Positions 21,165 through 21,793 of a DNA stretch of 64,000 nucleotides are shown here, in pieces. How positions within the stretch are numbered: the stretch's first letter is position 1; each line of letters opens with the position of its first letter. Origin of the DNA: a virus (taxonomy: Duplodnaviria > Heunggongvirae > Uroviricota > Caudoviricetes); IMG/VR virus record IMGVR_UViG_2703718861_000013; one strand, given 5' to 3'. The position numbers and the translations under genes were made by a program. The notes under the pieces are model-generated. The model saw only the letters and a program-made list of their open reading frames with translations, ran no database searches and was not told the DNA's origin.

Positions 21165-21423
21165 CCAGCCTCCGCCTCTGAGTCTGATGCGTCAGAACAT
21201 GCGAGCATCTGGTCAACCGACATTAAGTATCTCTCCTAAGTAATCAAGGCATGTGACCGCCTCTGTCAGACCTCGTGTATCGACCTCCAGCTCGTTAGCG
21301 TTCTCGTGTCTTCATTATGATTTGGGTCTATCACCGCTCACCATCTGGAAGTCCTTACAGCTCGTCCTGACATGCGGTCTCACCTTTATATGGCTGGAAG
21401 AGACCTCCTCTGTCAGACGCTAT

Positions 21424-21466
21424 CTAACCAACCCAGAAAACGGGTTTGTTAAAAAGATTAACATGG
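21424..21466 (+). repeat. 43-bp direct repeat, copy 1 (ctaaccaacccagaaaacgggtttgttaaaaagattaacatgg)
   Basis: 41/43 identical to copy 2; contains short hairpin aaccc-agaaaac-gggtt. Confidence 0.7.
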
Positions 21467-21619
21467 GTCTCCACCTTCATGAGGACCGCTCCGGAAATTT
21501 CCGGACCGTGAACGGGTGGCTCTATCACAGGTCGCGAAAATGGAAACCTGCTTAACGTCCCCAAAACTGAGCAGTCACCATTCTTAACGGGTCCAAATTT
21601 GGGCGCGTTGGCGAGAAGT

Positions 21620-21662
21620 CTAACCAACCCAGAAAACGGGTTTGTTAAAAAAGTTAACATGG
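21620..21662 (+). repeat. 43-bp direct repeat, copy 2
   Basis: 41/43 identical to copy 1, 196 bp downstream. Confidence 0.7.
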
Positions 21663-21793
21663 TCTTCACACGACCTCATTACCTCAAGTCTTTCTGTATG
21701 TCTCCTGTTGCCTGTGAGTCTCCCTATCGTTGGGGGCTTGAGTAGGCTTTCAGGGTGTGACTTCAGGAGGCATAACAAAAGGAGTACAACGAT

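Follow-up and report, generated by a model that had tools for sequence, protein, structure and literature searches.

The block of DNA considered here, positions 21166-21790 of a 64,000-nucleotide (nt) stretch from the viral record IMGVR_UViG_2703718861_000013 (the window), lies inside an island that looks, from its sequence, like an integrated satellite, 6.56 kb long, of T7-like phages of the K1F type (Kayfunavirus), apparently an undescribed one. The island spans 18706-25268, with 6563 bp between its attachment (att) repeats, and is inserted in ynfE, the two halves of which flank it. Its plus strand carries an integrase gene, a variable gene, promoter A, an open reading frame (ORF) of 122 amino acids (aa), promoter B, the block, a KilA-N gene, a 55-aa ORF, genes for proteins of 163 and 331 aa, and three small ORFs. 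A sequence-only reading of the window had singled out the block for two direct repeats and a palindrome, and had seen in it a candidate origin of replication (ori) or packaging signal (pac). Comparison with related islands points elsewhere, to a block that is probably the structured 5' leader of the operon that follows it.

When the block was compared with a dozen sister islands, using BLAST and MAFFT, it fell into three parts: a conserved 5' domain (segment A), a variable filler, and a conserved 3' end (about 21676-21793). These parts and the other features of the island are located in Table 1.

Table 1. Positions in the window of the block's components and of the surrounding features of the island
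Feature	Position	Strand	Remarks
Segment A, conserved 5' RNA domain	21159-21395	+	7 helices; 21160-21173, 21183-21196, 21201-21204 with 21362-21365, 21247-21262, 21287-21348
Variable filler with gene-fragment scars	21391-21660	+	Holds both repeats and the palindrome; from sister-island comparison
Repeat copy R1	21423-21466	+	Identical to part of KilA-N-like gene L014 7969-8469 (SLTNPENGFVKKINMG)
Palindrome CCGGAAATTTCCGG	21491-21504		14 bp, perfect, not conserved
Repeat copy R2	21619-21662	+	Adjoining upstream 21583-21622 has 95% identity to a piece of the L011 Rha gene
Conserved RNA hairpin, about 100 nt	21687-21785	+	34 pairs; 3' lower stem includes Shine-Dalgarno AAGGAG (21779-21784) of first gene
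Promoter B	21143-21167	+	25/25 identical to K1F phi10 promoter (K1F 20998-21022)
Promoter A (ATTATCACTATAGGGGAACC)	20718-20737	+	Weaker, K1F-type
attL	18695-18718	+	Direct repeat with attR (core AGTTCCAGATG), repeat spacing 6563; left island border in ynfE
Left-end junction look-alike, CTCTGGGTCTCCCTATCTGTATCAG	18818-18842	+	Resembles right boundary of K1F/Pisces terminal repeat and following TATCTGTATCAG signal; inside annotated integrase N-terminus
Tyrosine integrase, 527 aa	18771-20354	+	Pfam Phage_integrase 1.8e-13; PHROG 1
122-aa ORF	20765-21133	+	Variable slot (DUF4145 or HNH genes in other islands)
KilA-N domain protein, first operon gene	21794-22552	+	Slot varies (Rha or others elsewhere)
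Conserved 163-aa protein	22818-23309	+	Present in all islands; weak family matches only
331-aa protein, predicted HK97-fold major capsid protein	23385-24380	+	AlphaFold2 and Foldseek
79-aa K1F gp7.3 homologue	24386-24625	+	tblastn 38% identity over 79 aa, E 5e-7; weak Pfam VirionAssem_T7 match
Terminator-like hairpin, then TTTGTTTTGT	24788-24820	+
Right-end junction look-alike (..GACCATCTAATACATTAAG..CCCCCATAGCCC..AAGTCCAGACC)	25029-25135	+	Resembles right-end unique sequence/terminal-repeat left-end boundary in T7-like phages
attR	25258-25281	+

Conserved RNA structures of the block

The promoter-like motif that the sequence-only reading had placed at the head of the block is real, being an exact match to the phi10 promoter of K1F, and we take the G at 21159 as its transcription start. 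K1F itself has 11 promoters of this type, and the same type is found in all sister islands; the weaker promoter A lies 429 bp upstream of promoter B.

Segment A begins at +1 of the promoter in all islands, and its identity is 71-92% in most of them, including islands of other genera and one beside a tRNA-Gly gene. In an alignment of nine islands (A6) its structure comprises 34 pairs, for which 95.3% of the alignment cells are paired, compared with 26-46% in slid controls; 11 of the pairs show compensated changes, and none of 500 shuffles reached this result. The fold includes a stem-loop at the extreme 5' end and a long-range closing helix, and the same loop has received different extra hairpins in different lineages. 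Insertions and deletions of a single nucleotide exclude a coding role for this segment. It is also unchanged whether KilA-N, Rha or another gene comes next, implying that it is not an operator for the KilA-N or Rha proteins.

The conserved 3' end of the block, with an identity of about 80-90%, lies directly upstream of the Shine-Dalgarno sequence and ATG of the first gene, whichever gene that is. Most of it folds as a single long hairpin, which ends in AAGGAG-N9-ATG regardless of the gene that follows. Across 10 islands (alignment A4, folded with RNAalifold) its pairs are formed in 95.6% of cells, against 46-57% after the 3' partners have been shifted by 1-3 columns; six pairs have changed on both sides, and again none of 500 shuffles did as well. 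A covariance model of the hairpin (model R1, not to be confused with repeat copy R1) gives 111-145 bits for the plus strand, against about 20 bits for the minus strand. It detects a single copy in each island and two in L015, together with eight further copies among 80 of the metagenome contigs that match a 16-base pattern, and it has no match in the K1F genome or in islands L005 and L014, where the leader ends differently. The two copies in L015 lie at 7205-7327, before a truncated KilA-N gene, and at 7668-7789, before the next gene, consistent with movement of the hairpin along with gene cassettes.

Both structures contain many G.U or U.G pairs, a kind of pairing open to the plus-strand RNA alone, and the whole 638-nt leader RNA has a minimum free energy of -205 kcal/mol (z -4.2). 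A search of Rfam gave nothing at the gathering score and, at E<=5, only a chance microRNA match. Covariation in the aligned sequences thus supports the view that the conserved parts of the block are plus-strand RNA structures. Compensatory changes, strand specificity and a fixed position with respect to both promoter and ribosome-binding site are what a structured, cis-acting 5' leader would be expected to display, and all three are found here.

Repeats, palindrome and variable filler

The two repeats that first drew attention to the block, described as 43 bp long with 41 of 43 positions identical, are genuine, although their limits need correction: each is 44 nt long, 42 of 44 positions are identical, the start-to-start distance is 196 nt, and the earlier coordinates were one base off. 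The small hairpin reported in each copy (ACCC...GGGT) is also present. A repeat of 44 nt is far beyond chance. The perfect 14-bp palindrome, likewise, is where it was said to be, but the window holds seven perfect palindromes of at least 14 bp where about four are expected, and 7% of composition-matched shuffles reach seven; the palindrome alone is not, therefore, beyond chance.

Of 5426 complete Escherichia coli genomes, 140 have matches to the block region, and only three contain at least 80% of 21391-21618. The closest sister island, L001, is without 21391-21550 and has a single repeat copy, and in L006, L009 and L010 segment A is joined almost directly to the 3' end. The repeat unit agrees at 47 of 47 positions with a section of a 166-aa gene that is intact in L012, L014 and L005 (...FMRTKAGRSLTNPENGFVKKINMGHLG...), a gene that we judge by eye to be KilA-N-like and that has no match in Pfam. 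L011 represents the only other type of island with the palindrome stretch, and there the palindrome position reads CCGGTAAAATTGCGG, a change that does not conserve the palindrome. These findings point to cassette exchange at the variable first-gene slot, and on this comparison the repeats and palindrome are non-conserved recombination scars rather than conserved signals. The proposal that they mark an origin or packaging site is, therefore, not borne out.

An iteron or operator role for the repeats or palindrome was rejected on conservation. Iteron-type origins have at least three regularly spaced, conserved repeats and an adjoining initiator gene; here there are two copies, reduced to one in L001, of a unit that is coding elsewhere, and no initiator gene was found in the island. 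A protein-coding block was rejected as well, in agreement with the earlier statement that it holds no convincing ORF. Two frames do overlap the block, one of 100 aa (21253-21555, with a GTG start) and one of 81 aa (minus strand), but neither is conserved, since sister islands show 1-nt insertions or deletions and the loss of 21391-21550, and protein-level matches are only to short fragments of genes from other islands. A blastn comparison of the block with 50,697 phage records gave no match at E<=1e-5. The eye-catching repeats thus proved to be scars, and the real signal emerged only when sister islands were compared.

Helper-matched signals and genes of the island

That the element exploits a T7-like helper phage, as the sequence-only reading had suggested, is supported by its K1F-type promoter, its junction-like ends, its gp7.3 homologue and its HK97 capsid gene. 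The island is of the integrase type, with att repeats, and is too small and gene-poor to be a phage; with its helper-matched signals and genes, this is the make-up of a phage satellite. No replication gene was recognised among the island ORFs in Pfam and PHROG searches, which agrees with the absence of replication genes noted earlier.

Sequences resembling the concatemer junctions of T7-like phages are found at the island ends. At the right end the phage sequence ...GACCACA/TCTCACAGTTCAAG...CCCCCATAGCCC...AAGTCCAGACC aligns with ...GACCATCTAATACATTAAG...CCCCCATAGCCC...AAGTCCAGACC in the island, with z-scores, calculated against dinucleotide shuffles, of 17.4 for BHUENT8, 14.1 for P1723 and 8.4 for K1F (7-17 across four phage junctions). 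The left end scores 6.5 against the K1F junction and 10.9 against that of Pisces (0 of 300 shuffles), and 4.5-10.9 against three of the four, with none against P1723. The block, compared with the same junctions (K1F, BHUENT8, P1723 and Pisces), gives only -0.9 to 2.4, and the idea that it resembles a concatemer junction of the Autographiviridae fails on this comparison; the look-alikes are at the island ends instead. The exact helper form TATCTGTATCAG stands at 18831-18842, and the block has TATCGTT at 21725, not the helper's TATCTGT, so that the pause-type signal TATCTGT(A/T) found at the right boundary of the terminal repeat is not seen there. When the island ends were matched to a phage database, 21 of 22 hits were phage records of about 37-40 kb, and the remaining one was a 7.8-kb record labelled Enterococcus phage; the records that were opened belong to Autographiviridae, and the matches lie near the genome ends where these are defined. 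Both end motifs are kept in most sister islands.

The promoters of sister islands are varied. Other T7-group specificity regions occur in L006 (10318/10344 and 10870/10897), L009 (4179/4207), L003 (11113), L010 (3956) and L004 (9831, 10424 and 10532). Tandem pairs consist of ACCCTCACTATAGGG in the Leclercia island L006, or ACACCTCACTATAGAGG in the IMG/VR contig L009, followed by ACTATCACTATAGGG; the promoter sequence is ACCCTCACTATCGGGAGA in L003 and L010, and GGTACACTATAGGGAGAG in the Kluyvera island. This variety suggests adaptation to different or multiple helper polymerases. In L015 (6567-6900) and L021 (2445-2760) a further promoter lies upstream of segment A, and after it come a G-run and an AT-rich stretch that contains short repeats, an arrangement closer to a T7-type origin than is the block of the window.

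The 331-aa protein has no match in sequence searches of Pfam, PHROGs or the PDB sequences. Its AlphaFold2 model reached a predicted local distance difference test score of 85 with an alignment of 36 sequences, compared with 45 for a shallow alignment, and Foldseek gave 215 PDB matches at E<=1e-3, of which all 50 listed are phage HK97-fold capsid or encapsulin shell proteins; on the strength of this model it is an HK97-fold major capsid protein. The conserved 163-aa protein, encoded just upstream, could be a scaffold candidate; its weak matches are to PHROG 13808 and to Pfam T7_gp14 (E 0.013).

Islands whose integrase is closely related are found in Citrobacter, Kluyvera, Leclercia and Shigella, and related islands in metagenome contigs. 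Some occupy the same ynfE site, whereas others lie beside a tRNA-Gly gene or end at a tRNA-like sequence. No free or packaged forms were seen among the Logan and metagenome contigs of about 6.4-6.8 kb that were examined or the IMG/VR matches, all of which are integrated copies or chromosomal fragments. Near both att sites are TGACACAA(G/A)G(C) repeats (18863-18882 and 25170-25200), with a 20-nt exact copy at each end, which may be arm-type binding sites for the integrase. Between the integrase gene and promoter A is a 360-nt non-coding stretch (20355-20717) with strong negative GC and AT skew; it contains further CTGTGAGTC motifs, at 20588 and 20668, like those at 21712 and in the terminal-repeat look-alike. 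Elsewhere in the window are a 2806-aa ORF (1756-10176), two Rfam matches to sRNA-Xcc1 (14169-14254 and 14705-14789) and, between 33000 and 64000, matches of lambdoid-prophage type, namely DicF (36784-36835), sok (42040-42214) and cspA-type leaders (45509 and 48410).

Function of the block and relation to known systems

What, then, does the block do? We favour, with modest confidence, the interpretation that it is a structured, untranslated 5' leader of about 635 nt for a main operon driven by the helper polymerase, made up of two RNA modules and, between them, a filler without function. On infection the helper RNA polymerase would fire promoter B, a copy of the promoter of the helper's own capsid gene, to produce a transcript that opens with segment A and its 5' stem-loop and closes with the hairpin in which the Shine-Dalgarno sequence of the first gene is paired. 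The 5' domain may stabilise what would be a very abundant transcript. The 3' hairpin may gate translation of the first gene or, by analogy with the RNase III sites before T7 early genes, may be a processing site. The filler separating the two RNA modules would be the residue of repeated replacement of the first-gene cassette. The packaging signals of this scheme are the helper-like ones at the island ends, joined only after excision, which would bring the two halves together across the att site as a helper-like concatemer junction of about 320 bp.

Several points weigh against this interpretation. Transcription of the leader is deduced from the promoter alone, and 350-640 nt is an unusual length for a leader that does no more than stabilise the transcript or control translation. 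The 3' hairpin module is not universal, since L005 and L014 lack it, and its processing by RNase III is a proposal made by analogy. The covariation comes from 9-10 sequences of few lineages, so that the shuffle control overstates its significance; the slid controls are a fairer test, and these still separate clearly. Finally, the same DNA could also serve replication, as the roles are not exclusive.

This last point leads to the alternative that survives best, a transcription-primed origin composed of promoter B (with promoter A) and the leader, in which a transcript of the helper polymerase, perhaps kept in an R-loop by the structured RNA as with RNA II of ColE1, would prime the helper DNA polymerase and helicase-primase. 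We regard such an origin as unlikely, but worth keeping in mind; it is compatible with a leader function and would explain an island in which no replication gene is recognised. In vitro, a T7 promoter is sufficient for the T7 machinery to begin replication, tandem promoters are more efficient, and phi1.1A and phi1.1B together make up the native origin (PMC12796468). The T7 DNA polymerase and helicase can, moreover, use an RNA polymerase transcript as primer (PMC5997990), and T7 replicates and packages phagemids, which require ori, pac and the terminal repeat (PMC13236587). Since T7 promoters and transcripts can prime replication, the island promoters may double as an origin. The sister islands with tandem promoters (L006 and L009), or with a promoter and then an AT-rich stretch (L015 and L021), are in keeping with this. 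So is the minimum of the island's cumulative GC skew at about 21350-21650, although GC skew is uninformative in a 6.5-kb element with its genes on one strand. The primary origin of T7 has an AT-rich stretch. The analogy drawn in the sequence-only reading, of a T7-like promoter next to such a stretch, holds for the promoter but not for the AT-rich stretch; A+T content in the block does not exceed 62% in any 60-nt window, and the most AT-rich spot of the island (73%, 23346-23405) lies outside it. What is conserved in the block, furthermore, is a set of RNA helices with G.U pairs that a DNA origin would not need, and origin activity could sit wholly in the promoter, leaving the block without such a role. 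In one version, which we think decidedly unlikely, the leader would be a pre-primer RNA, a helper-polymerase transcript with which the helper's replisome starts replication of a capsid-encoding satellite of a virulent phage, itself lacking a replication gene, by analogy an origin like that of ColE1 RNA II rewired to a T7-type polymerase.

A quite improbable alternative is that segment A, or the whole leader, is released as a trans-acting non-coding RNA with a target in helper or host; it might, for instance, serve a helper protein as decoy or scaffold. The conserved multi-helix domain with its long-range closing helix would suit such an RNA, as would its place behind the strongest class of helper promoter and its conservation regardless of the downstream gene, and its release could come about by processing at the 3' hairpin. 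There is, however, no match to an Rfam family, and segment A is not separated from the gene by a terminator. The possibility that the leader pairs in antisense with transcripts of K1F was rejected, as nothing rises above chance: the longest antisense match to the K1F genome is 13 nt, where shuffles average 12 and reach 15.

It is more doubtful still that the block is for the most part a spacer without function, in which decayed first-gene cassettes have accumulated and which recent common descent alone has conserved. The middle 270 nt are exactly of this kind, and many islands are more than 90% identical overall. Segment A and the hairpin, however, are kept at 70-80% identity in Leclercia, Kluyvera, Citrobacter and metagenome islands and in the tRNA-Gly E. 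coli island, with the intervening sequence replaced, and their substitutions are compensatory. Last, and hardly tenable, is a pac signal within the block, formed by the repeats, the palindrome or GAGTCTCCCTATC at 21716: this motif (21716-21728) does resemble both the copy at 18822 and the sequence with which the helper terminal repeat ends on the right, and ACCTCAAGTC (21681) is a repeat unit adjoining the terminal repeat of phage Pisces, but the block has no significant junction similarity, against z 7-17 at the island's right end, its motif departs from the helper's TATCTGT, and the repeats and palindrome are unconserved. As a third junction-like site GAGTCTCCCTATC was rejected, being the tip of the covarying hairpin, with a TATC part that is not kept in sister islands (GGTCTCCCTTTACGTG).

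For a structured leader of this kind the nearest RNA analogies are the early leaders of T7 and RNA II of ColE1. T7 early mRNAs have long leaders and RNase III processing hairpins, such as R0.3 before gene 0.3. The block likewise has a long imperfect hairpin with internal loops just upstream of a Shine-Dalgarno sequence, at the end of an untranslated early-infection leader of several hundred nucleotides. It differs in having no sequence similarity (model R1 has no match in K1F), in that RNase III cleavage is only a candidate, and in that the polymerase would be that of the phage rather than the host. The ColE1 pre-primer RNA II is a structured RNA transcribed toward the replication start, with no encoded initiator. 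The likeness here, which lies in the folded RNA, its length of several hundred nucleotides and a replicon without an initiator gene of its own, is by analogy alone; there is no homology, and both polymerase and replisome would be those of the helper phage.

At the level of the whole element, the T7 phagemid of Chung & Hinkle (1990), as summarised in PMC13236587, resembles the island in that the latter also has helper-polymerase promoters and look-alikes of both terminal-repeat boundaries, the set of parts that enables T7 to replicate, package and transduce a plasmid. The island, in contrast, is natural, chromosomal and integrase-borne, its junction look-alike is split by the att site, and the block is neither element by sequence.

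The nearest satellites are the phage-inducible chromosomal minimalist island (PICMI) of Vibrio and the capsid-forming phage-inducible chromosomal islands (cfPICIs). PICMI is a minimal integrase island, about 6 kb in size and dependent on a virulent phage, and is packaged as a concatemer of helper-genome length; it encodes its own excision and replication proteins and has no capsid gene (PMC10803314). The island described here is similar in size and also has an integrase, and six copies of it would make 39.4 kb, compared with 39.7 kb for K1F. It differs from PICMI, however, in having no recognisable replication gene but an HK97 capsid gene, helper-type promoters and terminal-repeat look-alikes. 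The cfPICIs are about 10-15 kb in size, with their own terminase, portal and connector genes and with temperate helpers. They share with the island the encoding of an HK97-fold capsid protein by the satellite itself. The island is only 6.56 kb, however, has no ORF that matches terminase, portal or connector families, and is tuned to a virulent T7-like phage. In the literature we found no description of a natural satellite of T7-like phages in E. coli, which is not proof of absence.

T7-like phages are strictly virulent model phages, and the island appears to copy the late promoter of such a helper and both boundaries of its terminal repeat; it carries a capsid gene and no replication gene that could be recognised. 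The block is the most conserved non-coding part of this island, and interest attaches mainly to the island and to this conserved leader rather than to the repeats. If the block controls the timing of satellite genes, or primes replication, it would be a compact natural module of promoter, leader and hairpin, open to direct tests with T7-type expression tools, and the point at which the satellite reads the helper polymerase.

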